NCBI GenBank assembly: GCA_963924565.1 | Contig: OZ004610.1 | Location: 9,424,001-9,488,000 of the forward strand | DNA length: 64,000 bases | Direction of reading: 5' to 3' | Source: Ascidiella aspersa | Taxonomy: Eukaryota | Shown: piece by piece, positions 22,936 through 64,000 of the stretch | Layout: the number at the start of each line of letters is the position of its first letter | How positions within the stretch are numbered: position 1 is the first letter of the stretch | Notes under the pieces: generated by a model | What the model saw: only the letters and a program-made list of their open reading frames with translations | Told to the model about the DNA's origin: nothing | Databases searched by the model: none | Translations under genes and position numbers: made by a program

Positions 22936-25118
22936 ATGAGAAAGAATAACTTACCAAAGAAGGTATAGTTAGATGTTTAATATTTTCTGATACGGTACGG
23001 TATGTACATTTATAAAGGATCATTTATATTACAATTTTTTAGAAATTGTCACGCAAATATCTACACAAACCTGGGGGAAGCCAGACAAGGTCCCTTACCA
23101 CGATTCCGGATAAAGGTGAGTTGTTTGTATTATATCTCTAAGGATAATATAGGCTGTAAAACCAACTCTAAATTCTAGGACCATCTTTGATCTACAAAAC
23201 TCGATTTGACGTCGGCAGTGAGAAGTATCAAGAACGACAGGTTCACCGATCGGAAAACATGGCAAACGGTGAGCCGTAAAACTATATACTGTATTGTGAA
23301 AGTATAAGAAATAAAAATTTTATTACTACGTCCTATTTAAGCATTAAATCAGACCAGGCATAAATTGCAAGTTATGGCCTCTTGCTGGTAAAAAAAATTT
23401 AATTGCAGAACACTTAAACTTTGCTTTTTGTTACGAACTAGCACTTAACCTCACCTATTTGAGTTCATGTCTGCTGATATATTTTGTATTGCTGAATGCG
23501 TGTATTTTCAGGCGAAGCAGTGTCTTCGGCACGGAAACTACTGGATTACCAAAGCTATGCTTCGGAGAACCGAGCTACAAAGAGCGCGCCTGCGCTTTTC
23601 GACCACACTATTCCTAAAGCGGATTCAAAAATGGATTATGTTAATTCTACGATTGGATCTTTCAATCAGCAGTGGCTACCTATAAAACAACCCGAAGACT
23701 TAAGCACGCAGATTTCTCTTGTAACTGATGTTGTAAGAGAGGATACTAAGTTGAAAGAGTTGCGTCATGCATTGCTAAATGGGCCGAAGAAAAAAGCCAA
23801 GTTCAGTGCATTTCCAGTGTCAGATATTGATCGTTTGATTTCCAGCCGTTTTTTTGGTTTAACTGCTGATCAGCCCAGTTCACCAACAGATTTTATAGTC
23901 AACCCTAAATCTCCTCTGGGCCCTATAGTCGACCGGTCGTCTTGTTCTTCTTCTGTATCACAAATAGGTTTACTTAAAACGCCAGATCATAGTACAACGC
24001 TTAGCACTGACTTATCCTTAGAATACGAAAATTTTGACCAAATACCTTGCAATGCAAAAAACAATAATACAGCCATGCACGATTTAAATCACGCAATACG
24101 ATCTGGTCATGTAAGCGAGGATGTCTTGAACACAGTTGATGACGTGTTACCGCGAGCAGCAGTCTGCTCCGAAAGTACGATTCTGGCGGCTGAACTATCG
24201 AGCTCAGATGATATTGTAGACACTAATTCGAACAGAACAAGTCTCGACGATCTAAGTCACAGCAAAACCATGGAAGAAGTCGTTGTTTCTTGTTTGGAAA
24301 AGCCAGATGTCGAATCGCATACGACATACAAACGCAAAACTTCCTTACACGAGAAGCTTGAAGATGCTCATGGTAGCCCAACAGCGAAGTGTCTTGAGCG
24401 ACAGAATGCAGTGGATAGCAAAATACTGAAGGTTGTGAACAAGGGAACTTCTACAGATCGTGTTGAGGTTTCCGCAGCTGAAACACAAACTGAACAGATG
24501 GATGTATCCACCGTGGCCATCCAAACAGAGCCCCAAAACCAAGCAGTTTGGCATACGGAAGTCAATTGCCCTGCAAAAATTATCAAAACTCGTACCGTAT
24601 CAACTCAAACCGAGCCCATCGACTATCCGGATCACAAGTGTTTTTTAGGCAATGAGTATGAGATAGTCTTGCGAGATTATGGCAGGATTTTGTACCGAAG
24701 AATCACGACCGAGAAGGAGCTAGACTTTAGGGAAGTGTTGCACGCCAGTTTCAATATCTCGGGTCTATTTCCTACTCCCCCGAAAGGCGCCTCCCCCCGT
24801 AATGTATTACTTGATAACAAATCGACCAAACGTAGAGTTTCGGAGCAACCAAAAACGACCGTCGCGGCTTTGCCGGCGAAATCAATGCACCGCAAACCAA
24901 CCCGGCCGAAGCGAAGTAGTTTGAAGTTTAATGAACACAAGCCAAAAACCCAAAAACCCAAAACGAATACGGTCCGAGAAAGAAAGTCAGAAATGCCGCG
25001 GCGTGAAAAAGTGGAAGAAAATTCGGAGGATCACGACAAGTCTACGATTTTGGAGCAACTTCGTGCGCTTTTCGTTCGTATTCGAAGCAGACCGAAGAAG
25101 GATTTCGATTGTCTTTGA
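22936..25118 (+). CDS. Uncharacterised ~600 aa, probably disordered protein with clustered TQT/IQT motifs and a basic C-terminus
   Basis: Exons 22936-22962 (MRKNNLPKK), 23043-23115, 23179-23268 and 23512-25118 join in frame with phases 0,1,1 and canonical GT-AG. The last exon is the 540-aa ORF. S/T/D/E/K-rich, no domain recognised. Confidence 0.8.
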
Positions 25119-36300: not shown

Positions 36301-38360
36301 CTTTAAAATTGTTTTTTTTTTGCTGATTTTAAATATTAAATATTTTTATAAATTTTATTCATTATAAAATTTTTTTTTTTTTGTAGCTAGGATAGCCGGT
36401 ACTTTTGTAACTTGTAATCACTATCAATAAATTAAGAATGCAAGAGTGCCTGGCATACCTCATGTCATATGAATTAAATTCATTAAATAAATATAGTTTA
36501 CAAACCTTGATTGCTTTGGTTGGTCTGTTGATGTAGTACCTAAACACAAATTTTGTTGCAGGTTAGTAAAACACAAAAGAGTGATTTTAAAATTTTTCAT
36601 GTACTATTTATGAGTTTTAATTAATTAATGTTGCATTGAATATGTGAATAATAGAAATTACCTTGACCCTTGCAAGATAAATGTCGACCTTAATTCCTCA
36701 TCAGTAACAGCAAAATAATCTAGCAAAGCTAGCAATTCAGGTCATACACATTAACCAGATCTTAAAAGATATATATATATTTCGCCAACTAAGGCATCGT
36801 CAGTATATCTTAATTAAGATATACTGACAATGCCTTAGTTGGCGAAATATATATATATCTTTTAAGTTCTGATTAATTATTAATTATTGGACTAATATTC
36901 TTATTAAACCAGTTGCCCTTTATGTAACATACCAATTGGTGGCAAAGGCTTGTATTCTGAAAACTCATTAGCTTGGCTGACATGAGATTCATCTTCAACT
37001 TGATTGTTGTCTGTTATACACAAGCGTTACTTTTGTGCAATGATGACAAAATTTACTTGAAAAAAATTCTCACCAACTGGATCTTTAGCCATGAGCTCCC
37101 TGACATCAACAGGGTCAGTTTCTTCCTCATATTTTCTAACATTTTCTATTGTCAGTGCTGAAGGAACTCTTGGTTTCTGAATTCTGTAAATTTTTTTTCT
37201 TATAACATACTGGGATGGTGATAACAAAAATTTTATTTCAATTAGGCATAGCTGTTAATGTAAGTAAATCATGTTGTGAGAATACAATACTATAGAAAGA
37301 TTGTTCCGTTACTGCAGTTTGCATAAATTGTTTAAAGAAATAAGTTTCTGATTAATAGGTTTGTTGCAAGTTTGAGGCACAGGCCTTTTAAATTACCCTA
37401 TTCCCATTAGATAGGTTAATTCAGAGGTTGTTAATATAAGCGGTGATTCCCTCCAAGGGTAAAATTCTGAAGTTTCAAAGGAGGAATTTGGAATTTGTTA
37501 AAGAAATCATATTTTTTTATTCTCAGTGATTGTGTTATTGGTAACTGGCTAATTTTGGTGCCCAATAGGTTAAGTAACCTGTTGAATTAGTAAACCGAAA
37601 ATGTCCTGAAACATACAATGTACTTGGAAAATGTTTTGGTGCTTGCGATTTCCAGAGGTAGTTCATTAATAAGCAAGTTGTAACAGCTTACTTCAAAATC
37701 TAAACCAGTGGTTCTCAACCTTTTTTCTTTCGTGGCCCATTTTCGTTGCACAAAAATTCTGTGGCCCAATAAATGTTTGTGAAAAACAAACATCTATAAT
37801 ATAGCTATAGAACAAAAAACAGCAGAATATGTTTCAAAACAGATTATTTCTTGCATTAGTGAGATACTATTTGCTGAACAATAAATTTACATTCCTTCTC
37901 AATTCCTCCCCAAGCCATTATTCCTGTAAAATTAACTATAGTGACACAAATGAAACTAAATTCTTCAGTAAATCTAGCTTTTTAAATTAGTCTGTGGCCC
38001 ACTCAAAGTGTTCCTATGGCCCACCAGTGAGCCATGGCCCACTGGTTGAGAACCGCTGATCTAAACACTACAGTTTACAGGCATTTTTACAAGCAGGACA
38101 AAACTTATGACTTAAATGCACAGTTTCCTTATTATTACATCACACAGCACTATGAGTACGTTTTGCTGTTGTTAAACTACCAACATTTCACGATTGCTGT
38201 CGCCTGTTGCCGGCCTGGATGTGTCGTTTTCATTTTGAATGTGAGTGTTGGATTCTGATAAGTCAGCAGAATGTTGGGTTTCGGCATGTTCTTCTTCGCT
38301 TATCGGTAAATTTTCTTCAATTTCAGTTGCATTATTTTCTTCTGGGGTATCGGACTCCAT
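27312..38360 (-). CDS. ERICH6: Glutamate-rich protein 6-like (FAM194 domain)
   Basis: Phase-consistent exons (minus): 38360-~38181, 37183-37074, 37010-36933, [36719-36662 or 36539-36506], 36279-36149, 35880-35703, 35400-35298, 34384-~34214/34241, 33690-33520, 32645-32543, 32101-31947, 30862-30701, 30358-30234, 28853-28661, 28268-28192, 27543-27312. Acidic N-terminus, then FARQLKTVNYSLSSDKCMEEGWT, YDNGKKFLAVFADGTGSVWYSSGNVAI, FQPNGNCVCYYPSG, KKWRWKD and RFNVGTRL, which I recognise as FAM194/ERICH6-type. The first-exon junction is uncertain. Confidence 0.8.
29303..29850. mobile_element. ~550-bp dispersed element with degenerate inverted arms and a GGGTTAGG-rich centre (related copies at 59785-60268 and 59300-59465)
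   Basis: Shared blocks such as ggttaggtaaaa(t/c)gttgtata(g/t)gccttat, cgggtttagg and terminal gctggagtcg occur in both long copies. Confidence 0.7.
34558..34628 (+). mobile_element. tRNA-derived SINE-like head or tRNA pseudogene
   Basis: D-arm-like gtcggtagagcg, a hairpin ttccg-gtttgac-cggag and a B-box gagttcgaaccc. No convincing acceptor stem. Confidence 0.4.
36751..36876. repeat. Near-perfect 126-bp palindrome in an ERICH6 intron
   Basis: 63-bp arms centred on ttaattaa, about 3 mismatches, no loop. Confidence 0.92.
37706..38058. mobile_element. hAT MITE
   Basis: TIRs cagtggttctcaacc / ggttgagaaccgctg, perfect TSD atctaaac. Empty site in the duplicate at ~46352. Confidence 0.92.
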
Positions 38361-39552
38361 TGCAACTAGCGAAAGACATTCGGTAGCTGGGGCGTTAACT
38401 TGTACAGATCTTCAAAGTGCTAGATATCTCCAGCACTTCGTCCGCAGCTTATGTGTTGTCATGGCGAATTGTAAAAAATTAAATCCAGAACAGTACAATA
38501 CTAATAAAAGTAAAAGTCTTAGATTTCTATACATTTTGATATAAAGTAATAACATCATCCTAAATTTCCTACCGCTAATCTTTATTAAAATCCATCGTTC
38601 AGAGAATAAATAAGCCAAATATTTATTGACAAATGCAATTGTAATAATGATTTAAGTAACTTCGCTAAGTCCTGACACTTCAAGCTTGACAATAACAGCG
38701 CCAAACGGCGAAGCAAGCCTATGGTTACAAAACTAGCTATAGTTACTGCTAGCCATTTATAACCGTATCGACCGACCTACAGAATTACTGCTATAATGTC
38801 ACCCTGCTCAGTGGTTCTTAATGTTTTTCCATGCTGTAGGCCTACCCCATTCAAATCGCCAAATAATTTTTGCACGTGTAGCCTAACTCTTATAGAATTT
38901 CTTTACTATTGTAATTTTATTTTTACACAAGTAACTGAGAACATACAATAGTAGCACAATACCAAAATGTCAGTTAGTTTTACATTTAACTGAGAAAAGA
39001 AATAAATTACATTAATACATTTTCTGCGTCTGATTCAGCATACTTCGATTCACCATCCGCAACCGGTTTCTAAGAAACCCTGTCCTACAGCTGGTCAATA
39101 GTGGGATAACTCGCGGCGGTTAACGGAGACGTATTATTTCACCAAGCTATTACAGCATTAGTATAGAATAGACCAGGTACAAAAAGATTTGCATTAGCAA
39201 GAAAAATATAGGTTTAAATGAAAACACGTTTTTCAACCCTTAGTGAAAAACAGTCGTAGGTCTGTTACAAATGTGAACTTTAAACTAAGTTACAACAAAA
39301 TATACTTTTGCAAGTTTTGGTCTAAACCTAAAAACAACTGAATTGTCAATGTATATTTGATAAAACTTTTTGACCTAACGTTATATTTCCCTCAAATGTT
39401 TTGACATACCTAAACGTAGGTTATAAGTTTATTATTCTGTCAAGCGAGCACATACATGTAAAAGGGCAATGTTTAATCACACATAAAATTACTGATTTAA
39501 CTTTATTGTTTTACTAATATAGGCTACATGTATATTGTGTGTAGGTCTATGT

Positions 39553-40500: not shown

Positions 40501-43500
40501 TTAGCATTTTAAATACTCCATCCTGAGACTTGCGTATCCATGGTAAGAAGCCACGTAAAGCCGAAAGTATCTTGCGGTTAAGGCTGGAATGAACGCGTTC
40601 ACCTTGTAGCTTTCACGATTGTTGTTCCCGACGAAAATCTACAATCATGTTTTGTGCGTATAGTTAGTTTACAGTTTACACCAATGATATTATTTATACA
40701 CGAAATTCAAGTTCCTAATTTTGCTCTGGAGACGTTAAATACGTATTATCATTACGTTTGGCTGCAACATAGTTATTAGAAGTTCGTAAACTCTTGTTAT
40801 TAAACAATATGCTGAAAACTGTATTTCAACAACAAAATTACAAATGAAAATTTATTGCGTCCCGCCGGGACGTTTTTAAGTTTGTCTTTCACCGGCAACT
40901 AAAAAAGGTTGTTATATCTAGATTAAGACTGTTTAACGTTTTTCAACGATATACCATGGTAGGTAATGCGACATCGGGCATAAGCTTCCCTCAAAGCTCA
41001 ACAAGATTTGACGGTCAAAGTTTAATAACAAAAAATACCTCTGAATACACCCCAGCTGTACGTCACCGGTTTACCTTGTCTGTTCCTTGTGCATTTTGCA
41101 CAAAGTTTAAGGAAGAAGAATCGTTGCCGTAGGATATCCGGAAAGAGGTGATCCACTGATCGTTGAGCCTTCTTCCTTGTGTTATTATTCCAGTAATTTT
41201 GGTTGGTGATCCCAAGTCCACCTGAATCCATTCGTTCACTTGACCTGTTTTGTGAAATATTCGACGGTATAATATTTTACGTGGAAATCATGTATTTCTC
41301 CGAATTGGCTTGTTTGATAAAACAAAGTTTTGCTTATGTACAGTGTGTATTTTATCAACAAAAAATTACAGACGCAATCAAGGATCGGCTTCGCTAAATA
41401 GAGAGATTAAAAAAACAATATTAAATTATACTACGTAATTCCGAAGATTTTGCTTCTCACTGTTTTATAAAACTACTTTTAGAATCGAATTTTATTACAA
41501 AATAAACCTAAAACAGATTCTAGTTTTTACATATCAATCTTAATCTGCTCATTTAGTTGACGTTAAACAGTTTCGTGATGATACTACGTAGTGCTCTGAC
41601 GCCATGCTCGCACGATTAAATGTTTACAATTCTTTGCTTTCATGCCGTACGAGCAAAACCATAAAATCAACACAAATAATTCAAAATACCATGTGTTAGT
41701 ATAAAAAAACAAAACTTGAAGGCTATACTTTACACTTAGAGCTCGTTTATAAGTACTCCACGAAGAGTGAAAGTTACCTTAACGAGTTGTTCACAAACTA
41801 CATGATGTAACGTATAATACCGTTGCCTGCCGCCCATATTCCTTTATCGCTCGGTGAATTGTTCGGGTTATCCAATCGGGCCAAATGAGGACCGTGGTCT
41901 GCATAACTGTTCCAATATGATGATGCTGAAAAAGCCGAATCCGAAAGCCCGCCACTTTTAATGCCGACAGAACACGTTTCTGGGAATACATTTAATGGAT
42001 TCTAGCTATGGTAATGACCAATGGTATGTAGTCCCCCACTTCATTTGAATTTAAGTACATGTATACGCACACACCTACGTATGATGCAGTTATACTTGTT
42101 TGGGGTATTGCCAATCCGGTTGTATGGTTTCTCAAAAAATCCTTATGTGCGGTTTAGTACTACAAGGTTAAAATAACTTAACTTAAACTTATTGTATAAT
42201 ATTTATTTGAAAAACAGGAGCCCAAGGCGGGAAACTAAAAAATGGAGTGTAACACAAAAAGGTTAACCTCCTGGTATAAAGTATAAACAAAAAAATTCAA
42301 CTTTACCCAACCTATTCAGATTAGTTTCACAAAAACGGCCTTTAAACTAAAATGTTATGGCTGTTGCATAGCTTTACGTATGGCAAGAAATATTGCAATA
42401 TATGTCATGTTATACCTCGGTTTTGACTGTACTCGAAGTAAATCTTGGATGGCATTAATTCGTTGTACAAATCTAAACACACAAAAAACAGTAATAATAA
42501 TAATGTTAATTGGTAACTTATTATGGTATGTTAAACTAATTTTACTGACCTTTATATTAACCATGAAAACACTCATATTAACTATCAAATATGATGTATA
42601 CCAGGTACAAATATTCTTAGCAAGTCCTTTAATTCACCTACAAGTTTATAAATATTTTGAGAAAAAACAATTTCTAAAATTTTTCCCTCGGTAAAGATTT
42701 TCTTTTTCTTTAAGCATAAAAGTGTTAAAGCAAAATGTACGTCACACCTCCAACACATGATTGTCACCAACCTTTCAAGCGATTTATTTCGTTTTGCTGC
42801 TCGTCTTGTCTTCTATCATTGCAAACGCAAGGGCCTGGAGGTCCTACGTCACCTTTAGGGCCCCTTTGACCCGTCGGTCCTCTCTTACCTATAACAACGG
42901 CATTAGGCTACTTGCGCCAAATAACAATGACCTACAGTTGTTTTATTAAATTATAAGAAACATTTATACTCGTATAGCGGTGTGTTTGGATGCCTGGTAT
43001 ACTTACTGTTTGTTTTCTCATAAGGGTAACAGAGGTTTTTCGGTAAAACCTAGCTTACGCTTGTCCGATCCCAGTTAAATTATGTCATTTTTATGGCCAA
43101 AAGTGTTTCTTTGTATTTCAGTGTATTATGTTTTTCAGCTAATTACGCCAAAATTTTGAGAAGTTAAGTTATCTTCGAGTTTTAAAGTAATACAAATGCA
43201 TTGATCGTTCGAGGTAGAAATCTCTTCGTTGGATAGCAACCCATTGCAAAAATGCATGAACTCAGTTAATTTGCCATAAATCACCCTAGTATGAGATAAG
43301 CATCGATGATAACACTCGGTTTTGGACATCGTCTTTGCTTCGAACCAATAGAACAGGGATGGCGAACCTTTTAAATGCGCTGGTTTGCCATCCCTGTAAT
43401 AAAACATCCCTAGCATCCCTGTAACAGAACAATAATAGCAACCCAATAAAACATCTCCAGCAACTATGTACAGCGAAGATAAGCAAAAGGCGGGGATGGA

Positions 43501-43707
43501 TTTAACAAGGTTTAAACCCGTTTATCAGCGCCATGACATGCTTTCTCGTTTACCAGGACGAAGTGTCGTAGCATTCCTCTTGGTATATTCTCGTTGTCGA
43601 ACAGAAACGCATACATCGAAATCGCCTTCGTCGTAAGCACAGTGGCAAATTGTGCAAGACAAATAAAGCGCCAAAATAAACAACACAAATTTCAAAGTAT
43701 GGGCCAT
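40501..43707 (-). CDS. Secreted collagen-neck-discoidin (F5/8 type C) protein, copy A, complete, 264 aa
   Basis: Exons 43707-43554 (signal peptide, DFDVCVSVRQR), 42888-42772 (GKRGPTGQRGPKGDVGPPGPCVC plus neck), 42472-42416, 41979-41821 (CSVGIKSGGLSDSAFSASS...ARL...IWAAG), 41244-41075 (EWIQVDLGSPTKITGIITQGR...WITSFRISY) and 40638-40501 (IFVGN...ARYFRLY...SLRMEYLKC*). Total 795 nt, open, canonical splice sites, textbook FA58C motifs. Confidence 0.9.
43354..43396. mobile_element. 43-bp minimal hAT MITE
   Basis: cagggatggcgaacc...ggtttgccatccctg flanked by caatagaa/taataaaa. Absent from the homologous position in copy B (~51613). Confidence 0.75.
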
Positions 43708-45855: not shown

Positions 45856-46465
45856 CTAAGTTGACAACAATAGTGAGTTTAACGAAAAAACTTACATCAT
45901 CTTGTTAATTGAGTTACATAAAAAAAGAATAATCCTCTTCGTAAAACAGTAGAATTGATATTTATTGACTTTTTATTTAAACTCTGGAAATTACGAACAT
46001 GATAGCGAAAAAAGCTTTAACATCAAAAGTACTGCTCGTGTTAGGAACGTATATTACAAAGCTTTTTTATTATATTTTTAGATAACCGTTTTTGAATAAC
46101 AAAAAATCAAATAGTATTAGTCCACCACACACTTACTTTTTAAATAACCGTTTTAGGAAATATTCAAACATACAATGTACCTGGAAAACGTTTTGGTGCT
46201 TGTAATTGTCAAAGGTAGTTCATTAATAATAAAAACACCAAGGCTTAGACATAGCTAGATTATAAATAGCAATTTAAACCATTTAAAACAATTTTAGTTG
46301 CGGGAGTGAAATTTGGTGATATTGAAGCAAGTTGTAAGAGCTTACTTCAAAATCTAAACAGTACCGTAAACAGTCATTTTTACAAGCAGAACAAAACCTA
46401 TGCACAGCTTCCTTATTATTACATCACACAGCACTATGAATACGTTTTGCTGTTGTTAAACTACC

Positions 46466-46643
46466 AACATTTCACGATTGCTGTCGGCTGTTGCCGGCCT
46501 GGATGTGTCGTTTTCATTTTGAATGTGAGTGTTGGATTCTGATAAGTCAGCAGAATGTTGGGTTTTGGCATGTTCTTCTTCGCTCATCGGTAAGCCTTCT
46601 TCAATTTCCGTTGCAGCATTTTCTTGGGGTATCGGGACTCCAT
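46466..46643 (-). pseudogene. Duplicated, frameshifted copy of ERICH6 exon 1
   Basis: Close match to 38181-38360, but ATGGAGTCCCGATACCCC has an extra C versus ATGGAGTCCGATACCCC, shifting the frame from the ATG to an early TGA. No downstream ERICH6 exons were duplicated. Confidence 0.8.
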
Positions 46644-46808
46644 TGCAACTAGCTAAAGACATCCGGTAGCTGGGGCGTTGACTTGTACAGATTTTTCAAG
46701 TATTATAGATATATCTCAAGCACTTCGAAATTATGAAAAAATTAAATCCAGATCACTACAGTAGGCCTACTAATAAAAAGCAAAGTCTCTATTGAGGTTT
46801 CTATAGGC

Positions 46809-48622: not shown

Positions 48623-49474
48623 TTGTTATAAAGGTTGAAGACCACTACTATAGCTGGTCAACAGTGGGCTAACTCATAGCGGTTAACGGAGACGTATTAT
48701 TTCACCAAGCTATTATAGCATTAGTATAGAATAGATCAGGTACGAAAAGACTTGCATTAACAAGAAAAATATAGGTTTAAATGAAAAAACTGTTTTCAAC
48801 CCTTAGTGAAAAACAGTCGTAAGTCTGTTACAAGTGTGAACTTTAAACTAAGTTACAACAAAATACTGCGTAAAGTTTCGGCCGATACATAAAAATACCT
48901 GAACTTTTAGTGTGTATTTGATAAAGTTACACTTTTTCACCTAACGTTCTAAACAACTTGAATTTTAAACAAGCATTTATAGAAAGTTTCGTAAATTTTC
49001 ATGTACTTTTCTAAGCTTGATCACAGTAGGCCTACAAATTTTGCTTCCCACGAGTCTACTCGGATTATTTGTTTTCTGCCCTTCTGTTTCCACTTTGGCA
49101 TTACAGTTATTTGGCGATTCATTACATTGTTCCTAACCAGAAATACCAGGAAAGTTTAACTGTAGTTCAAATTGCAACTTAATTTCTGTAGCCACTTTAT
49201 ACTTTCCTCAAATGTTTTGGTATACCTAAACGTGGGTTATAAGTTTATTATTCTATCAAGCGAGCACATACATGTAAAAGAGCAATGCTTTATCACATAT
49301 AAAATTGCTGATTTAACTTATTGTTTTACTAATAATAGGCTTCATGTATATTGTGTAAAGGCTTATGTGGTTTAGTTTAAATTATTTGCAAACACAGAAA
49401 GCAATTATATTTACAACACAGAAAACATCAATTCGGTGCACTGTTACAAATTCTTTGTCGTTTGTTTTTTGTAA

Positions 49475-51899
49475 TTAACATTTTAAATACTCCATCCTGA
49501 GACTTGCGTGTCCATGGTAAGAAGCCACGTAAAGCCGAAAGTATCTTGCGGTTAAGGCTGGAATGAACGCGTTCACCTTGTAGCTTTCACGATTGTTGTT
49601 CCCGACGAAAATCTAGAATAATGTTTTTGTGCGTATAGTTTACTTTACACCATTGATATTATTTATATACGATCTTCAGGTACATGTTTCTAATTTAAAA
49701 AAAATTCATTGCGTCCCGCCGAGACGATTTTAAGTTTGTCTTTGACCCGCAACTCAAAAAGGTTGCCGATCTTATATATAGATTAAGACTGTTTAACATT
49801 TTTCAACGATATACCATGGTAGATAATGCGACATCGGGCATAAGACTCCCTCAGAGCTCACTAAAATATGACGGTCAAAGTTTAGTAACAAAAATGCCTC
49901 TGAATACACCCAGCTGTACGTCACCGGTTTACCTTGTCTGTTTCTTGTGCATTTTTCACAAAGTTTAAGGAAGAAGAATCGTTGCCGTAGGATATTCGGA
50001 AAGAGGTGATCCACCGATCGTTGAGCCTTCTTCCTTGTGTTATTATTCCAGTAATTTTGGTTGGTGATCCCAAGTCCACCTGAATCCATTCGTTCACTTG
50101 ACCTGTTTTGCGAAATATTCGACGTTATAATGTTTTACGTGGAAATCATGTATTTCTCCGAATTGGCTTGTTTGATAAAACAAAGTTTTGCTTATGTACA
50201 GTGTGTATTTTATCAACCAAAAATTACAGACGCAATCAAGGATCGGCTTCGCTAAATAGAGAGATTAATAAAACAATGCTAAATTACCGGACGTAATGCC
50301 GAGGATTTTTCTCACTGTTTTATAAAAACTACTTTTAGAATCGAATTTTATTACAAAATACACATAAAACAGGTTCTACTTAATACATATCAATCTGACG
50401 TTAAACAGTTTCGTGATGATACTACGTAGTGCTCTGACGCCATGCTCGCACGATTAAAGGTTTACAATTCTTTGCTTTTATGCCGTACGAGCAAAACCAT
50501 AAAATCAACACAAGGAATTCAAAATACAATGTGTTAGTATAAAAAACCCAAACTTAAAGGCTATACTTTACAATTAGAGCTCGTTCATAATTACCCCCAA
50601 AAGTGAAAGTTACCTTAACGAGTTGTTCACAAACTACATGATGTAACCTGTAATACCGTTGCCTGCCGCCCATATTCCACGATCGCTCGGTGAATCGTTC
50701 GGGTTATCCAATCGGGCCAAATGAGGACCGTGGTCTGCACTTCTCCAGGATGATGATGCTGAAAAAGCCGAATCCGAAAGCCTGCCACTTTTAATGCCGA
50801 CAGAACATCTTTCTGCGAATACATTTAATCGATGCTATGGTAATGACCAATGGTATATGCAGAAAACTACCCGTCTTCATTTTAATTAAAATATATGTAT
50901 ATGCACACACACATACGTATGATGCAGTTATACCTTAATACGTTCGAGGTATTTACAATGCTGTGATATGCTTTCTCGAGAAATCCTCATGTGCGGTTAT
51001 ACAAAAAGGTCACTAAAATAATTGTATAATATTTATTTGGAAATAAGAATTCTCAGGCGGGTCACTGAAAATGTGTATAATACAAAAACGTTAACCTCCT
51101 AGTGTAAAACGTAGATAACAAAAATTCAACTTTACCAAAATTATTCAGATTTGTTACATAAAAACTGTCTTTATTAGGCTAATCTATGGAGGTTGAACAG
51201 CTTTACCTACAGTGGCTAGAAATATTGCAACATATGTCACGTCCTACCTTGGTTTTGACTGTACTCGAAAAAGATCTTCGATGGCATCAATTCGTTGTAC
51301 AAATCTAAATGCAAAAAACACGGAAATAAGAAAAATGTTAGTTCATTGTTATGGCCCAAAATTGTTCGAATTGTTTTCCAGTTTATTATACTTTCCAGGT
51401 TATAAAGCCAAAATTTGCTAAATCTTATAGAAGTACAGTTGTCTTCGGGTTTTAAAGTAATGCAAATGCAATTATCTTTCGAGCTAGACATTTTGGATAG
51501 AGACCCATCGCAAAAATGCGGGTAATAATCAGTTAATTAGCCATAAATCACCCTAGTATCGGACGAGTATGGATGATAACACTCGATTTTGGGTATTGTC
51601 TTAGTTTCGAATTAATAGAACATTCCTAGTAACTTGTAACTATACATTTACTGTCTACAGCGCAGATATGCAGCAGTCGGGGAAGGATTTAACACGGTGA
51701 AACCCGTTTATCATCGCAATGACATGCTTTCTCGTTTACCAGGACCATTTTCAGGTGTCGTAGCATTCCCCTTTGTATGTTCTCGTTGTCGAACAGAAAC
51801 GCATATATCGAAATTGCCTTTGTCGTAAACACAGTAGCAAATTGTGCAAGACAAAAAAAGCGCCCAAATAAACAACAAAAATTTCAAAGTATGCGGGAT
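49475..51899 (-). pseudogene. Collagen-discoidin copy B: intact linker and discoidin exons, ATG changed to ATC, collagen exon deleted (pseudogene, or the 3' half of a gene started by copy C)
   Basis: Exon 1 homologue 51899-51740 begins ATC CCG CAT ACT TTG versus ATG GCC CAT ACT TTG in A, with an in-frame TAA just upstream. About 575 bp including the collagen exon is missing at ~51340. Exons 51304-51248, 50812-50657, 50102-49933 and 49612-49475 are open with intact splice sites. Confidence 0.75.
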
Positions 51900-53754
51900 A
51901 CTTCTTGTTTGATAAGTTTAAGAAACTGTTAAATAAAAAAAACACAAAATAGTTACATGTTTTCTGCGATTTTGTTATGCCAGGGTGAATAAACCCCCAA
52001 CGCAAGAATGTTGCTTGAGAAACAGTATCTCGACTTCAATACAAGAGAGTTGGGTAACAAGGGGCGAATAATAAGGGGGCCACGTGACCATGCTCCCCCA
52101 CGAAATAAACGAATTTGTGGTGTTCTTAAAGCAACTTATTTTTGCCTTTACGTTTTGATGTACAAAAAATAAAAATCCCCCCGAAACAAAACTCCTGGAC
52201 CTGTGCTTAGCGGGTACTAGTCAAATGTTTGTAAGGTGCAATCTTGTTTATGTTAAGCAATAGATCACCGTCACCAATTTATTTTACAAGAGGTGGATAG
52301 CTATACGGCCTGACGGTATAAAAATTGCGTGTCGAACCTTATTGACTTGATTTTACTTATTAAACGAAGGGAATACAACATAATGTTAAACAAAATATAC
52401 AGCTTAGGCTACTTGTCGTTTAGAAATTCGGTTCACATTTGAAACCTACAAATATTTTCGTTATTAAGCAAGAATAACCGTATTTTAGCTTCGCTTATGC
52501 TCCCCTGGTTATATCTGGCACGTCAGCCGTAGTTGGATGAGCCTTGCATTAAAAAAATTATTATACACTATATCGCGAAGCAAACACAGTAAATACAGCT
52601 TCTTATTAGATTGATTCCCATCGTCTGTACTTCTCTTTCTCACAAAAACGCCTCTATTTGGAAGCTTACCGTTGTTTGCGGTTTACGGTTAAAATAACTG
52701 ACCTGCGATCTGCTGTTGAAAACTAAGTTTAAAAATGCCCTTCAAAATAAATATCAAAATAGAAACCGTGGCTCAAAGTGAGACAAAAAACGTGTAGACC
52801 TATGTTGCTGTTGCAGCCTACTTTTTGGTTGTGTAGGGCTAGCCTACTGTGGAATGCTACACACCCCTTTTTGTCCAGAATTTTACAGTAAAACTATAAT
52901 TCGGAGAGATTCAAGTATCCAAAACCGATGGAAGCTTATATGTAGATAACGTTTTAAGTGTTTAGAAGTCTATTTACCTAGGGGTGTTCAGCTGGGGGTA
53001 CAAATTGCAAACAAAATATGACGTCATCGTAAAATTGATTTTAACTCTGTACTCCTACCTAGCGGTAGCAATATTTCCTAAAACGGATATGGTCAATCGA
53101 CACCGGTTATACAGACTGTCTCGCGGGCACTATACGGGCACTGTTAAAGCAGCGAAACAGATTCCGCCAAAGGAGTACATTCTGCTTTGGAACGCCAGAC
53201 ACAAGTATGTTAATACTTACGGCCGAAACCTAAACATCTTCCCTGCCATCGGCTGTTATATGCAATTTTGAAAACTGTCCAATATGTTTTTACAAGCCTT
53301 TAGATTTGTGTATTTCTATTTTTATTATTAATTCATAATTATTTCTTTGAAATGTATCATATCACTCTGAAAAACACGTACTACGGCATGTAGCGGCTAC
53401 AGGATGTTATGGATTCTAAACTAAAAGCTAACATTCTATAACCTTGTAGCCCTAGTATGGTTTAGCTCGTTTTAAGAGAATCGTTGCTCAATTCTATAAG
53501 ATTTACAAAATTCCACATTGTATCTCATGCGACCCTTTGTAACAAATTGCCCATTCTGGGTTAAATGTTCAAAAAAGTATTTTCAAATGTAAAATCATTT
53601 TTTTCAATTGTAATATCAATACAATATGTCAATTGCAGTCTTGGAATTTTAGGAAAATCATTTTTGAAATAAAAATACAACTTATCGGCGTCTTTCATCC
53701 ATTATGTCACAGTTGTGCGCACAAATGTTGGGCGTAGATATCGCAGCTGCAGTC

Positions 53755-54622
53755 TGGGGGAGTTTCTACTGCTCTGTAGTGAAATGTGCGCAAAAATGTG
53801 CGCACATTTTAAAATAACTTCAAAATGTGTGCAGTTTTTTTTCACAATGTGCGCACATTTAGAACTGCCTTCAAAAATGTGCGTGCTTTTTTCAACAATG
53901 TGCGCACATTTAAAACTGGCTTCAAAAAAGTGCGCACTTTTGACAATGTGCGCACATTTAGAACTGGCTTCAAAAATGTGCGTGCTTTTTTCAACAATGT
54001 GGGCACATTTTAAAATATCTTCAAAATGTGTGCAGTTTTTTTTCACAATGTGCGCACATTTAAAACTGGCTTCAAAAATGTGCGCACATTTAAAACTGGC
54101 TTCAAAAATGTGCGTGCTTTTTTCAACAATGTGCGCACATTTAAAACTGGCTTCAAAAAAGTGCGCACTTTTGACAATGTGCGCACATTTAGAACTGCCT
54201 TCAAAAATGTGCGTGCTTTTTTCAACAATGTGCGCACATTTTAAAATATCTTCAAAATGTGTGCAGTTTTTTTTCACAATGTGCGCACATTTAAAACTGG
54301 CTTCAAAAATGTGCGCACATTTAAAACTGGCTTCGAAGAGGTGCGCACTTTTTTAACAATGTGCGCACATTTTGAACTGCCTTCAGAATCTCCGCACATT
54401 TTTAGGTTAGAGTCATCGTTAGGGTTAGACTTAGAGTACAGAGTTTATCTAACTCTAACTCTAACTCCCAAAACTCTTACTCTAACTCTAACTTGAAAAT
54501 GTGCGCACATATTTAGGGCATTTTAATATGTGTGTACATGATGAAAAAAAGGCAGTTCAAAATGTGGGCACATTTTTTGCACATTTTTGCGCACATTGTG
54601 CAAAATAACGCCACCGTCCCCT
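53755..54622. mobile_element. Foldback-like element built from an internal minisatellite (AATGTGCGCACATT core)
   Basis: Long left array of AATGTGCGCACATTT(T)AAAACTGGCTTCAAA-type units, a TTAGGG/TTAGAG...CTCTAA centre and a short inverted right arm. A partial second copy lies at 60960-61118. Confidence 0.75.
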
Positions 54623-55296
54623 GTTGCAGGGGTGGCGAACCTTATTATAGAATGGGTCACAAATTATACTACATCTCCAAAAAAAGAAACACAAGTGAAA
54701 TTACATATAACCTGTAATGAACTTGGCGCCGTATCTTCTACACAAATAATATTATCCATGTCTGGTAATTCATGAATTTATTTGGATTATTCCGTGTGAT
54801 TGACTTTATCAAATTATTTTGCAAACACCAGGATTTGAACGAATTTTGAAATCAAAGAAAGTTAAAAGGATACAACAAATTCAATCATGGTGTCAATCGA
54901 ATTTTCTAGAAAGCTTTACGCTATGAGGATATGTTTTCACCATGAATTAAATAATACTTAACAATATTTTTTTACAAAGGTTTAATAAAACATTTATTCT
55001 TTAAAAATATATTTGATTATATTTGATTTTTTGAAAAGCAAATTTGGCCCCTGATAACTTAAGTTGCCAAGCGTCGTTATTTGTTTTGTTATGGGGTCGG
55101 AAAAACAAACCACTGCCACAAAAAAACTCTTTAGAATTATCACATTGAAAGCCAAGTATAGGCCTATATTTAACTATATCGAGTATTTTAAATTAAATAT
55201 TACCTACCGTATTAAAAAACACCTAATGTTTTCTCAGGATGACAGTATAGTTTGAAAAGGAACGAGTAGAAAAAGTGGTAGGCCTACATTAATAAA

Positions 55297-55298
55297 TG

Positions 55299-55338
<40 letters not shown>

Positions 55339-55508
55339 TGTAGTTGTGCTTGTATGAGACCGTACGTGTTAATGTGCGTGTTGTGTGTATGTGTGCGTGT
55401 TGTGTGCATGTGTGCATGCGTGCGTGCGTATATGTGTGCTTGTATGTGACTGTACGTGTTAATGTGCGTGTTGTGTGTGAGTGTGTGTGTCTTTGTGCAT
55501 GTGCACGT
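55297..55508. repeat. (GTGC)n/(GT)n microsatellite
   Basis: Perfect GTGC run followed by degenerate GT repeats with an internal duplicated ~45-bp block. Confidence 0.92.
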
Positions 55509-55606
55509 AGACTTAATAACGAGTGCTTAATTTTTATAATATCAAACCCTGTCTTAAATTTAAGATATTGAGCGACATTATAAATTTTATTACAAACGCA
55601 ACCAAC

Positions 55607-56112
55607 CTTTCGAGCGATCTATCTCGCTTTGCATTTCATCAAGTCTCTGCTGGTCGCAAACGCATTCTCCTGGAGGTCCAACGTCGCCCTTGAAGCCCCT
55701 GGGACCCCTTGGCCCCACTTTACCTGCAAGAATTTACTTATTTATCACGAAAACGACGACTGGAATAAATATAATACTTTTAATGTCAAAATCAAAGACC
55801 AAAAGCCAAGTAAAAAGTCAAACACATGATTAGACGCTTTTCGAAGGAAATTAAAAGTATTATTCAGGCAGATGTTGTATTTGTATTGAATTAATCACTA
55901 ACATGGTAACACCCAACGCATACACATATACTTCACTTACCAGGACGATTTTCTTGCGAGGTATCATTAATTTTATTTACCCTTGGCGAATCTCGTTGGC
56001 GCACTGAAACACAAACATCGAAATCGCCTTGATCGCCAGTAGAGCAAAGACATACGGTAGATGAGAGAAATACAGTCAAAATTACCGACAACGCGATCAC
56101 AACATTGGACAT
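55607..56112 (-). CDS. Collagen-discoidin family copy C: signal/Cys exon plus collagen-neck exon, no discoidin exons of its own found
   Basis: Exon 56112-55941 MSNVVIALSVILTVFLSSTVCLCSTGDQGDFDVCVSVRQR...RP(G) with donor gtaagt. Exon 55723-55607 GKVGPRGPRGFKGDVGPPGECVCDQQRLDEMQSEIDRSK has the same 117-nt length, phase and gttggt donor as in copy A. Confidence 0.8.
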
Positions 56113-57963
56113 GATGGCCTTTTTTATATTTATTAAATGGTGTTTTCGATTAGCGCCTAAAAATACAACTGTATAACAATCTGTAAAATGGGCACGGTTA
56201 GTTAGACCGACAACTAATTGACAAAACAACATATCTCTGAACAAACTAACAGCAGCATAGCGTTATAGTGGTTAGAAACACCAGGAGAAGGTTTTTATTG
56301 CATAACTTTATTTTGAGCAAGATAACATTTTTAAGTACACTCAGTTCTATACTTTAAATTTATTTGCCTCTAACTTTACAAGAAAAGAAGCTGAATATGA
56401 CTATTATTAAGCCAATGACAAGATCTATTTGTTTCAAACGGCTAGACTTGTTTAAGTTATTTTGCAAATCACTCTATTGCGACTCAAATCATTTGTAACT
56501 ACCACTACTATGCACGTAGTTAAACATTGGACACTTTATTACATTGAAGTGAAAAAACAAGGGTCTCTGTTCTTATGATACTGCACGAACTGCAATATTT
56601 AGCATAGTAAAAGTCTGTGCGAATGTTGCATTTAGGCGCATACTCAAGCCTTATATACCGAATCAACGTGTTCTCCACACAAAAGAAAATTCAAAGCTTC
56701 AGTTTGTTGAAAGAACATGATTCGAAATGAGAGGTTTCGTCGAGTCAGCTGTCTCCAAACAAGAGTCACTTTTCTTGTAAAACTGCACCAACTGCAATAT
56801 TTAGCAAAGTAAATGCCAGTGCGATTTTCTTCACAAAGGCAAATTCAAAGCTTCAGTTTGTTAAAGGGCCATAAGTCGAAAAGACAAACCACAAAATCTC
56901 CCTGCACAGCTATACTTGCGGTGATGTTCAAACAGTGCTGTATCTTGATTTCAAGTTAGTTGACAAGGTAATTAATTTAAATTTCTCTTGGATAAAAGCT
57001 CCGCGAAGTGGAAGGTCGCGGGATACTGTACATTGCGATTAGATTGTTTTCAGACTTTACGGCGTCACATCTAAAGACTATATACAGGTCGCAAATAAAA
57101 TCCCGCACACCAAAGTAAATCTGATCATCCTTTGTGGCTCCTTAATGTTTCTGCAATGTCTTTGTTCAAACGTTTCAGGTGCACCACATAATAAGCTTAA
57201 AAGGCATCTAAGATAGTTCTCAATATTTTGCGACAGTAATAATTTATTAGTTTCTAGTTGTGCAATGCACACTGAAAAGTTACCGAAACAACATAAACGA
57301 TTTTCGGGAGATTTTGAAAGAACACATTCAGAGCTTCTTCTTTTCAACTGTCATGTGAGAAATAGGAATTGACTTTCTAACAAATATCATTCTAAATAAA
57401 CATCGATGTATTTATTTGCTTTTGTAGTGCAAATGAAAAGCATTGCAAGATATTTTCAAAGCACGACACAGCTATTTTTAAGTAGGCTATATAAACAACG
57501 TTGATTCTGTCAAAGTCTTACAAAACGCCTGTTTTTTCAAACGGCACAGATACCTCCATTGTTGCACGGAATATCGAAGCACGATGATGGGACAGTTTAT
57601 TACAGAATTAGCATGGCTCTATATTGCGTTTAATGCTATGGGTTAAGTCCCAAGTGCTGTAAGCAAGTCATTTACCAACTTACTTTGTTTAGTCCTGGTC
57701 AAGTCAAAAAACATACAAGCAAAAAAAGGCTCAAGCTACTTTAAAAAGACAAGCGTGTATCAGGTTATACCAGGTTCCTAAGTATGGCTTTACAAATCCT
57801 AGTCAAGCAAAGTGTTAGCACTTCATGTTAAATGGCGATTTGAATTTAAGGTGCAATAATATCAAATTTTCTTTTCAGAGGCACACCAGCAGCACGTTTC
57901 TGTTTCTTGCATTTCCCAGTCGAAGTGCTCGGATCAAAGAAGGCAACAGCCGTGAAGCGATCT

Positions 57964-58420
57964 GAAACGTTTAAACAAGTCTTGACTAGGGACGTACGAT
58001 ACCAGGAACTTTCCAGTTTACTTACTTCCCGCAATTGCCTTTGTTATATTCCTTCGCTGAAGGTCGGTACCCTTTCAACACGGATCCATGAAACGTTTAA
58101 AAGAAGTCTTGACTAGGGATGTCCGATTCCAGGAACTTAACAGTTTACTTGCTTCACGCAATTGCCTTTGTCATATTCCTTCGCTGGAGGTCGGTACCCT
58201 TTCAACAAGATTCCATGAAACGTTTAAAAGAAGTCTTGACTAGGGATGTCCGATTCCAGGAACTTTCCAGTTTACTTACTTCCCGCAACTGCGTTAATCA
58301 TATTCCTTCGCTGGAGGTCGGTACCCTTTCAACAAGATTCCATGAAACGTTTAAAAGAAGTCTTGAATAGGGATGTCCGATTCCAGGAAATTTCCAGTTT
58401 ACTTACTTCCCGCAACTGCC
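57964..58420. repeat. ~127-bp tandem repeat, ~3.6 copies
   Basis: Unit starts gaaacgttta at 57964, 58090, 58217 and 58344. High identity between units. Confidence 0.92.
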
Positions 58421-59784
58421 TCTATCACAGTGGTTCTTAACCTTTGACAACCTGTCGAACCCGCAAGTCATTCTGCAAGCTTTCGTCGAACCCCAAATAT
58501 TCGTTCAGTATTCCTTTCTTCCTCCTAGGCCATGTTTGTTAACAAATTGGCTGGATCTAGGATTTTTGTTTCGGGGGAACATGAAAGTTGTCATGGATAA
58601 CTCAAACATGACGTCATAAAACATTTCTTCTTTAAACACCTGTTGTTCTGTAGCCGACCCGTGCGCTAATATGGAACTAAAACTGGGCTTAATAAAATGG
58701 TTTCTGTTATGTTTAATTTATTCCCTGTAATGTATTATTTTTGCTATTTTGTCAACCGACAATGGAATCAATTTTTTTGTAGTTAATATCGTATAGAAAT
58801 TTTAAACCTGGTTTTGTTCTTTAGTTTTGTCCTAGCATTTTGCGGTGAATTTGTAACTTTACAATTAAAAGCACTGTATTTATAACCTGTTTGTTTAACA
58901 AAAATGTTCTTATTAGGGGTAGAATAAAAATGACAGTCGCCGATTTTCACAATTCTTCGAGACGGTAAGAGTTGTCGCAGAATTACTTAATACTAGTATT
59001 CTTTTGGGTTATACAGAATCAAAATTTTTAGAAGGCCTGTGAAAACCTTATATAGTTGCCTTTGAGAAGTGGATAATTTTATTATATGTAACTAAATATG
59101 CTAACCCAGCGCTTCTCAACCGATGCGCCATGGAAGGCTGCCAGGTGGTCGCACACAAAACGAAATAATTAAGATATTTAACATATATATATTCTTTATT
59201 TTTCCATTAAGTTAGCTCATTGATTTCACAGTACTTCCAAGTAAAAAACATAATAAGATCTACAAAGCACCAATATCTCAATCAAATAATCTAAAGACCA
59301 CCGACATAATAACGCAAAATTCGCAGTAATAACCACAACAGAATAAGATCTAAAATAGTCTAGATAAGACCTAAACCCGTCGAAATAAGTCCAAAATTAT
59401 TCTGAATAAGACTTAAATAGACAACATAACGTCTAAGACTGTAGTGAAAGGGTATGGGATGATTGGGGGCCACATGTCTCAAAGACTGGAGATCCTTTAA
59501 AGATTTGCAACTATAAAGCCTATATAATGAAAAATTGCAAGCAATTTAAACAAATACTGGTACACTTAAAAAAGTTTGCGCTCGCTTCCCTTGCAAGGTG
59601 CGCCGCCACGTTTTTTTTCATACCATTTGTCTGTTTTATCTTACCATCATTTCTATATTCATTCGATAAGCGTTTTCCAAATGTCATGTCCGACCCTACT
59701 CTTTTTATTTTAAACGGGAACACACAATAAAAACTAAACAGCAAGATTTAAAGCAGAAAAGTCTATAGTACCATAGTATGATGA

Positions 59785-61766: not shown

Positions 61767-63360
61767 CAGTGCCGGATTAACTAAAGTGCGGGGCCTGTGG
61801 CAGATTGATCTGATGTACCAAAATAATCACCGGGAGTAATTAAATATTTTATGAATTTAATCTACATTCTACAACAAAAAAGTCCAATGTAATGTTTTAT
61901 TTACAAGAAATATAAAACTTCAACAATATTATTTTAATGTCTTTGCGACGCATTTTGATTTCTGCAAATTTGGCAATTATTTCGGATGAGTTTAGTGACT
62001 TTAGAACGTCATTTTCAATATTCAAAAGAGTTAAATAGCGTAGCCGCTCTTCCCCCATTGTGTTTCGCAGATCGTTTTTAATTAACTTCAATTTTAAAAA
62101 CGATCTCTCTCCAGTACAATTAGTTACCAGTCTTACCATCATCTAGAGAAATACGTAACAAATTTTCAATGTTAGGAAGCGTGGTGTTAATATTGTTTTC
62201 TTTGATCAAAGTGAAATAGTTGAGTTCTGGACAGGAGCAATCAATAGCAATGTGCTTTACGAATTCTGAAAACTGAGGTAGTTCTTCTTTTAATCCGTCT
62301 TCCTAATCCTGGGGATATGCTTCTAAAAGGCTGTCAGCACTTTCTTGGATCTGCGCAGGTGTTAAGGTCATGTGTATTTCGCAAAAAACTAAACCCGTTT
62401 CTCCAGCGCAGATAACAGGCTGTCCAATACAGCAAGAAAAGCTTCTACCCGAAATCTGTCTTCAGGTGATCGATTTTATCCATTGCATCTGGAACTAAAC
62501 GGCCACTGCCTACATCCTCGTCATCGCGTCTTCGATTTCGGACAATTCTTCTTGTTCTTGTTGTTCGATAATCTGGCACTTGAGCCAGCTTCTGCGTCTC
62601 TGACTCAAACTTAGCGAATTGTTCTCTAAAAGTCTGTAGGGATTATGCCAAAGAGGCACACAATGCTGAAGCAATGTTGAGGTTTTGCTGCTTTGATTGA
62701 AGAAAAGCTTGAATTGCCTGAAAGCGCTCAAGTACGCTATTCCGAAAAAACAATAAAATTGCAGTTTTGAGCAACTCCATTTTACCGAGGAGTCCATTTG
62801 CCTGCTGTCGACATTCTGGCTTTTGCTCTTGGTTTTTCGCAAGTTTCTCCAATGCCTCCTTTATAAAAGGTAAACGTTCTTTAATAACCTTAATGGCATC
62901 ATCTCTTGCGGACCATCGTGTTGCAGAGAGTCTCTCTGGCACTTCACCGAAGTGAAAAACTGAACTGTTTCTGGACACGATTGTGCAGCGCATACATCAA
63001 CTAAATTCAACGAATGAGCATAGCATGGGACATATTCTGCGACATCACTAAATTTTTTTGACAAGTGCCTGTACTCCGTTATATTTCCTGCTCATGTTGG
63101 ACGCATTGTCATAACTCTGTCCACGGCAATTGGCAAGATTGATACCCTTCTCACTGGTGTACAGCACCAGGCTGTCGAAAATCTGCTGAACAGTATGGCC
63201 CTCCATTGGCAGAAATGCAAGAAACCTTCCACAGGCCCTGTTGGCTTGACATATCTTACTGAGAAACCAAGCGTGTCCGTTTGAGCAATGTCCGGGGTTG
63301 AATCTAGTGATATGGAAAAGTATTTAGCTTCTTTCAGTTCCCTGACGATTCGATGTAAGA
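61767..63360 (-). mobile_element. Decayed hAT DNA transposon (ZMYM1-like/Tip100-type transposase pseudogene)
   Basis: Minus-strand fragments across frameshifts and stops: KYFSISLDSTPD (first D), CRGQSYDNASNM (second D), YVPCYAHSLNLV (CxxH), LSATRWSAR, and VTNCTGERSFLKLKLIKNDLRNTM (catalytic E, dimerisation domain). Probable terminus cagtgccggatt at 61767. The N-terminal part is not found. Confidence 0.9.
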
Positions 63361-64000
63361 ATAATGCGAGCTAACATGAGTGTTTTTTGTGCGATTAAGA
63401 AACCAAGCTCAAAGCGAAACTAATAGTTAACACTTCTGGGTATACAGGCTGAAATGTGTCGAAGTATTTTCAAAGTAGCGGCCACATTATTGTGTTCGTG
63501 ACCTAAAAAACTACCCAAAAAATCTAGTTTCAACCTGGGATGAAAGTTTTAATTTGACTTTTATGGCGAATATTAATATTGAATATTAATATTTTTTTAA
63601 ATAATAATTTTTTTTTCAAAAGTTTAAAAATATGGATCATCAGTCCTAAGACGGTGGTAACAGTTTTTTGGAAAAAAAATCTACGTAAATAAGTTTATTT
63701 TGGCGTTGAAATAATCTGCCAGAAATTATATGCGGACTAGCTTATGATCGAATAAGCCTATATACTTTTGAAAAACGTTGGTTTTAACAACGTGAAAATG
63801 GATAATCTTATTTTTGAACTATATGCTCTCTATATATTTTTGCCTTCTGTAGTTACATTTGTGCGATGGTCCGGTGAGCGATGCAATGCAGTGTGAAGCG
63901 GAGCTTTAGACGGAGATGTTGACAGCAGCAGTATATAATATTGAATAACATATACCGGTATCCAAACAAGCAGAGCTAATTAAATTACAATTCTGACCTT

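Follow-up and report, generated by a model that had tools for sequence, protein, structure and literature searches.

Two broken, neighbouring copies of one gene family, designated C and B, may be spliced as a single chimeric gene in which the promoter, signal exon and collagen exon of C are followed by exons 3-6 of B. The copies were found in a window of 64,000 nucleotides (nt) of Ascidiella aspersa DNA (GenBank assembly GCA_963924565.1, contig OZ004610.1, positions 9,424,001 to 9,488,000 of the forward strand), and positions without a prefix are those of the window. Joining of the donor of C exon 2 (55607) to the acceptor of B exon 3 (51304) had been proposed in a first-pass annotation, with both sites in phase 1 and an intron of about 4.3 kb. 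The phases were found to be as proposed, the intron is 4,302 nt, and the joined frame is open, with a product of 810 nt and 269 predicted amino acids from the summed exon lengths. The C and B parts are collinear and in frame on the same strand, and their splice sites are intact. Of the four readings considered, the spliced chimera was judged the most probable, with a likelihood somewhat short of one half. The weights of the four readings are a matter of judgement and were not computed.

Copy A, a complete gene of the same family, was used as the reference for the layout. Its signal-like N-terminus and Cys motif are followed by about seven Gly-X-Y triplets and a neck, and a 57-nt linker exon then leads into a single F5/8 type C domain. 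Genome searches and 400 kb of sequence gave 22 family copies in four clusters on the contig that contains the window (C4), 15 of them complete and seven partial; R26c, R26e and R26g were scored as complete from matches to exons 1, 2, 4, 5 and 6. The collagen exon is present in all 15 complete copies, and introns 1-4 are all in phase 1. A phase-2 reading of exon 3 was ruled out by stops in several paralogues, phase 1 being the right one. The array continues to the right of the window; its members, in the order of transcription, are F, C', B', A', C, B and A. F is complete and of the C type, and the C-B-A unit has been duplicated as C'-B'-A' with about 95% identity. Among the partial copies, one at C4:26879968-26881436 has exons 4-6 only, one at C4:26891600-26893696 has exons 1, 2 and 6 only, and R8c (C4:8478744-8482316) lacks the ATG and the upstream region, is open in exons 2-6 and differs by 1.6% from R8e. 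Distant matches to discoidin exon 5 at C4:1258673-1302338, C5:17976403-17985322 and C7:23864740-31210272 are possibly further clusters of the same or related families. No ascidian description of this family of at least 22 copies with signal, short collagen and discoidin parts was found in the open literature searched, which included the accessible part of PMC12817120 and had most subscription papers outside its scope. The features of the locus are as follows.

56650..56657, minus strand: TATA-like motif 545 bp upstream of the C ATG, a consensus match only (pattern scan)
55941..56112, minus strand: C exon 1, with ATG, a hydrophobic signal-like stretch, the conserved DFDVCVSVRQ motif and a GT donor, phase 1
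55607..55723, minus strand: C exon 2, with about seven Gly-X-Y triplets, CxC and the neck, phase 1 to 1
55181..55182, minus strand: junction of the deletion of about 446 bp that took out C's own exon 3, common to C', from the alignment with F, R8c and R8e
52865..54630, no strand: repeat-rich segment where the homology of C to the complete gene F ends, before the B upstream region; the F match ends about 110 bp before the F exon-4 acceptor
51926..52864, minus strand: B upstream region, with homology to the 1.3 kb or so that precedes A
51740..51925, minus strand: old exon 1 of B, with a candidate acceptor at 51925, ATC for ATG at 51899-51897, an open signal-like frame and an intact GT donor, phase 1
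51342..51343, minus strand: junction of the deletion that took B's collagen exon, relative to copy A and common to B'
51248..51304, minus strand: B exon 3, the 57-nt linker, phase 1 to 1, open, with AG/GT ends
50657..50812, minus strand: B exon 4, where the discoidin (F5/8 type C) domain begins, with a 3-nt in-frame deletion common to A'
49933..50102, minus strand: B exon 5, discoidin core
49475..49612, minus strand: B exon 6, which completes the discoidin domain and carries the terminal Cys and the stop
40501..43707, minus strand: copy A, complete six-exon gene of 264 amino acids, the reference for the layout

The earlier description of both copies was confirmed in all coordinates, phases and splice sites. 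C has an intact ATG, signal exon and collagen exon and consists of exons 1 and 2 only. Between C and B no discoidin exons were found by tblastn and blastn over 55290-51305 (best expectation value (E) 0.03, top matches on the wrong strand), and between C exon 2 and B exon 3 no other exon 3 was found, the best ungapped match being 28 of 57 bases. C exon 2 matched Pfam Collagen PF01391 with an E of 0.009, under the curated cut-off, with about seven triplets visible, and its donor scored 7.8, equal to the score of copy A. The TATA-like motif was also found upstream of C'; the pattern scan gave none in the 1.1-1.25 kb or so upstream of B or B', nor for F within the range scanned. A tandem repeat of units of about 127 bp is located at 57963-58427 and was also seen upstream of C' and F. 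At 52975-53700, high contig depth was observed in two DNA-like runs.

In B, the ATG has become ATC and the collagen exon is gone, and exons 3-6 are open with AG/GT ends. The ATG to ATC change is a disabling lesion in B's own frame, as is characteristic of a pseudogene. An in-frame stop is present just upstream of the ATC, and apart from the loss of the start and the missing exon 2 no other lesion was found in that frame. The discoidin domain is split over three exons. Exon 5 was assigned to the F5/8 type C domain by its match to PF00754 (46.6 bits, cut-off 28.2), exon 6 alone matched with an E of 7e-5, below the cut-off, and exon 4 alone gave no match. Exon 5 also matched 41 distinct sequences in the PDB (best E 9e-10; neuropilin-1, lactadherin, factors V and VIII, retinoschisin), and a search of a protein database with the same exon resulted in four candidates, none at an E of 1e-8 or better. 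A segment of about 390 bp was found duplicated, 89% identical, downstream of A (38059-38440) and downstream of B (46352-46727).

The chimera leads because it alone predicts the sites of all three lesions and which of the two sister copies is conserved. The lesions (C exon 3, B exon 2 and the B ATG) are all located in parts that the join makes redundant, and none is located in the six exons needed. One usable copy of each of exons 1-6 remains, along the path C1-C2-B3-B4-B5-B6; by hand count, a hybrid path is left by 7 of the 36 possible pairs of lost exons. The first-pass annotation had offered the chimera as the explanation for the intact B exons, and the losses turned out to be more complementary than it had noted, as C also lacks exon 3. 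Compared with F, C and C' have lost exon 3 by a common deletion (about 446 bp), and the match of each to F ends at a repeat some 110 bp short of exon 4. B' keeps its ATG and a complete stalk-less frame of 227 amino acids. Since the deletions are common to both units and the ATG is present only in B', the three deletions predate the duplication and the ATG was lost later. The C'-B' unit is located at C4:9503225-9508542, and C' has a 48-nt in-frame deletion. B' has a second, out-of-frame ATG 14 nt upstream of its ATG, where B reads ATC as well. B and B' can be told apart at 51294, and C exon 2 has a last base unlike that of C' and F; in the predicted product a lysine would precede the junction.

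Trees were built for exons 1+2 and for exons 5+6, with 14 rows each and with R8c, R26b-e and R26g left out. C grouped with F, R8a and R8e in the tree of exons 1+2 (support 100/98), and B grouped with A in the tree of exons 5+6 (support 100/100), the F heads forming a separate clade. With the C half in the F subfamily and the B head with A, the two halves have different parents and the product would be a cross-subfamily hybrid. The lesions, the phases, the subfamily origin of each half and which lesions predate the B/B' split are established.

Changes private to B, polarised with A and A', were found at 3 of 521 positions in exons 3-6, at 4 of 154 in exon 1 and at 33 of 1642 in the introns. Exons 3-6 of B differ in this respect from the introns (Fisher p=0.029) and from introns 3-5 (p=0.010), and the comparison of exon 1 with exons 3-6 gave p=0.051. 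No exon drop was seen for B', with 11 of 521 private changes in exons 3-6 and 30 of 1642 in the introns. The ATG-less B is thus more conserved than the ATG-bearing B', which is the opposite of what is predicted for a B that stands alone.

That B does stand alone was considered the second most probable of the four readings, a possible one that was held only tentatively. It takes B as a collagen-less paralogue spliced from exon 1 to exon 3, with transcription from its own upstream region or resolution by spliced-leader trans-splicing; the ATG would have been lost recently, perhaps as a null allele, and C would be an unrelated dead 5' fragment. Exon 1 of B would also splice in frame to B exon 3. 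About 960 bp of A-like upstream sequence is retained by B and may hold its own promoter or outron. Fixed differences between A and B are found at 10 of 154 positions in exon 1 vs 67 of 387 in intron 1, so exon 1 was under constraint during part of its past. In the genome, 354 exact copies of the Ciona-type spliced leader with a following GT were found, many of them in 584-bp tandem arrays, and the reversed control gave none; the leader sequence searched, and the resolution of downstream genes by trans-splicing, are described in the part of PMC7986045 that was accessible. The genome most likely uses leader trans-splicing, and with these copies downstream genes could be resolved in this way. Arrays of spliced-leader RNA genes with a 584-bp period were seen at C3:5218799-5448695 and elsewhere. 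The stand-alone reading fits less well with the drift of the ATG-bearing B' at the intron rate. Furthermore, exon 1 differs between B and B' at the intron rate (5.0% vs 4.5% in introns), with eight differing sites that are all non-synonymous and none synonymous. All 15 complete copies have the collagen exon, and the in-frame state of both C and C' is left to chance.

The chimera was kept under one half because it requires read-through over the repeats and skipping of a poison exon, neither of which was observed, and several of the findings in this and the next three paragraphs count against it. The proposed intron contains the old exon 1 of B, which still has an intact donor and whose candidate acceptor at 51925 scored 2.5, compared to 3.7 for exon 3. 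Splicing of C exon 2 to 51925 results in a stop after two codons, in both units. The acceptor at 51925 is plausible and not proven: in eight paralogues the acceptor before the ATG had a median score of 5.3 vs 3.2 for random sites (random 90th percentile 6.7), and the splice matrix, built from 32 acceptors, is too small for proof. Six AATAAA motifs and at least ten higher-scoring AGs were found when the interval was scanned. Since introns 1-4 are all in phase 1, any 5' half fits any 3' half and the phase match of C with B carries little information. The complete 227-aa frame and ATG of B' indicate that B-type copies could be read alone. A further reading, considered very improbable, is that the locus has two 5' ends and that the B head is used both in a stalked form starting at C and in a stalk-less form starting at B exon 1. 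Each route is in frame, and neither donor is damaged in B or B'. In B itself the stalk-less form could only arise by weak initiation at the ATC, which has an A at -3. ATC is a poor start codon, and no RNA read was obtained for either route.

RNA evidence came from about 6% of one raw RNA run with the same species label, aligned to 49300-53700 only, a region that does not contain the C exons. Eight reads were found on B. None of the eight was on exons 1, 3 or 4 or 99% alike to B, and none joined C exon 2 to B exon 3, C being outside the region covered. Four reads matched the predicted fifth intron (49612/49933). At 50015 all four covering reads have the base found in A, A' and B', and the intron-5 reads are therefore not assignable to B. 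One DNA-like contig run had the ancestral letter at seven of the nine listed B-private places checked. Many B-private changes are thus polymorphisms, as is part of the B/B' distance, which favours the reading of a stand-alone B. Position 51897 in the B start codon was not among the 40 of 88 differences listed for the two contig runs, a listing that does not bear on ATC vs ATG there. The exon-4 primer proposed earlier as B-specific also matches the paralogue A' (two matches). No retrocopy or second locus with C exons fused to a B-type head was found among 21 and 48 genome matches.

The constraint signal is post hoc, was seen on one of four branches, and all three changes in B exons 3-6 are non-synonymous. 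No drop of exons below introns was seen in the complete genes A and A'. The ratio of non-synonymous to synonymous change (pN/pS) was 0.98 for C vs C' and 1.9 for exons 3-6 of B vs B'. Neutral simulations were performed with intron rates and 20,000 runs. Exons 3-6 of B remained intact by chance in 14% of the runs, and in 37% if the ATG was lost halfway; for C exons 1-2 on one branch the value was 10-60%. R8c, with its open exons 2-6 and no ATG, has no upstream half among the matches found. Taken by itself, the intactness of the B exons was therefore a weak argument, the loss of the ATG being younger than the B/B' split and R8c being equally intact with no partner found. What stands of the earlier explanation is the in-frame join, the complementary losses and a modest sign of constraint on the head exons, which exon 1 of B does not show. 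In C', a conserved motif of 16 amino acids is missing and one collagen Gly has become Cys, and a Leu-to-Ser change in the neck is common to C and C'.

These values bear on a reading in which the four partial copies of the two units (C, B, C' and B') are all pseudogenes of recent origin in an array with rapid birth and death, their complementarity being coincidental and eased by symmetric phase-1 exons. It was considered improbable. The array does contain seven partial copies among 22 (B, B', C, C', R8c, R26b and R26d), including R8c so close to R8e, and pN/pS is near or above 1 for both pairs. Exons 4-6 show exchange with A and A'. Likewise, C has derived sites in common with F from its upstream region through intron 1, and with C' beginning at the end of exon 2. 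As F is intact, recent recombination could explain the good state of the upstream region and exon 1 of C. A difficulty for the pseudogene reading is that 2% of the neutral runs left exons 3-6 of both B and B' undamaged. Both C and C' keep the ATG, the frame and the splice sites, for which the neutral chance was 0.13 at the B/B' rate and 0.01 at the local C/C' rate. The lesions also spared the exons needed. A' (C4:9490341-9493838) is complete, with an A-like 5' end and a B-like exon-4 segment and downstream flank (95% over 1.85 kb), and is on this pattern a hybrid made by crossing-over or conversion. That C'-B'-A' and C-B-A are two haplotypes entered as a false duplication was considered less likely, given the mosaic make-up of A' and C, which draw on different neighbours.

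Returning to the spliced chimera, its origin could be due to the following steps. The start would be an array of complete genes, in which a repeat-associated deletion took exons 4-6 of C and set C beside the upstream region of B. With read-through, three exons (C exon 3 and B exons 1 and 2) would no longer have been needed. Two of them, C exon 3 and B exon 2, would have been deleted before the duplication of C-B-A, and the ATG of B lost after it. The predicted product is a secreted protein of 269 amino acids that combines a stalk of the F subfamily with a discoidin head of the A subfamily, made across the 4.3-kb intron. We infer the read-through, the skipping of B's old exon 1, the translation and the selection. 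In its fullest form, as a young selected hybrid of F-subfamily promoter and stalk on an A-subfamily head, with stepwise loss of redundant exons and with C'-B' as the earlier state that still has the ATG, the account was regarded as rather unlikely.

If the junction exists, the locus would be a clean case of gene birth from two broken paralogues, with the intermediate C'-B' next door, and an A-type head would have been placed under an F-type promoter and stalk. Copies in tandem arrays that are scored as pseudogenes may then jointly encode one gene. In the fullest form of the account, the array would show a likely secreted recognition family exchanging its stalks and heads in two ways, by crossing-over and by splicing that passes over a dead first exon. 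The process is already known, and the gain is an example and not a principle.

Elsewhere in the window, exons of a gene with fibronectin type III repeats were found on the plus strand at 5697-19750, where 4 of 20 frames scanned match PF00041. An open frame of 540 amino acids at 23496-25118 (plus strand) had no Pfam match. Broken frames at 62510-63370 (minus strand) with a weak DUF4371 match (E 0.01) are probably a transposase remnant.

Defence collagens, that is collectins, ficolins and C1q, are built from a signal, an N-terminal Cys region, a Gly-X-Y stalk, a neck and a globular head. The overall layout of the present family resembles theirs, but the head is a discoidin domain and not a CTLD, fibrinogen or C1q domain, and the candidate stalk has only about seven triplets. 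Accordingly, the head exons match PF00754 only. The F5/8 type C (discoidin) domain of B exon 5 is shared with the b domains of neuropilin, lactadherin, the C domains of factors V and VIII and retinoschisin; unlike in these proteins, here there is a single domain, preceded by a signal, a neck and a short stalk of collagen type. Chimeric genes from tandem duplication are documented in Drosophila yakuba, as described in the accessible part of PMC5460883, and there, as is predicted here, a local duplication has put the 3' part of a gene under the control of the 5' part of its neighbour. Unlike in the D. yakuba chimeras, the halves here are paralogues of one family, and the predicted join is made by splicing over the dead first exon of the partner, after separate deletions. 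In 'Tinkering loci' (bioRxiv 10.64898/2026.08.09.743762), as far as its accessible part describes them, fragments near transposon sequence are re-transcribed as composites. Gene fragments beside transposon sequence are common to both systems, but the tinkering loci gather them genome-wide, whereas here they come from the local tandem array of one family.

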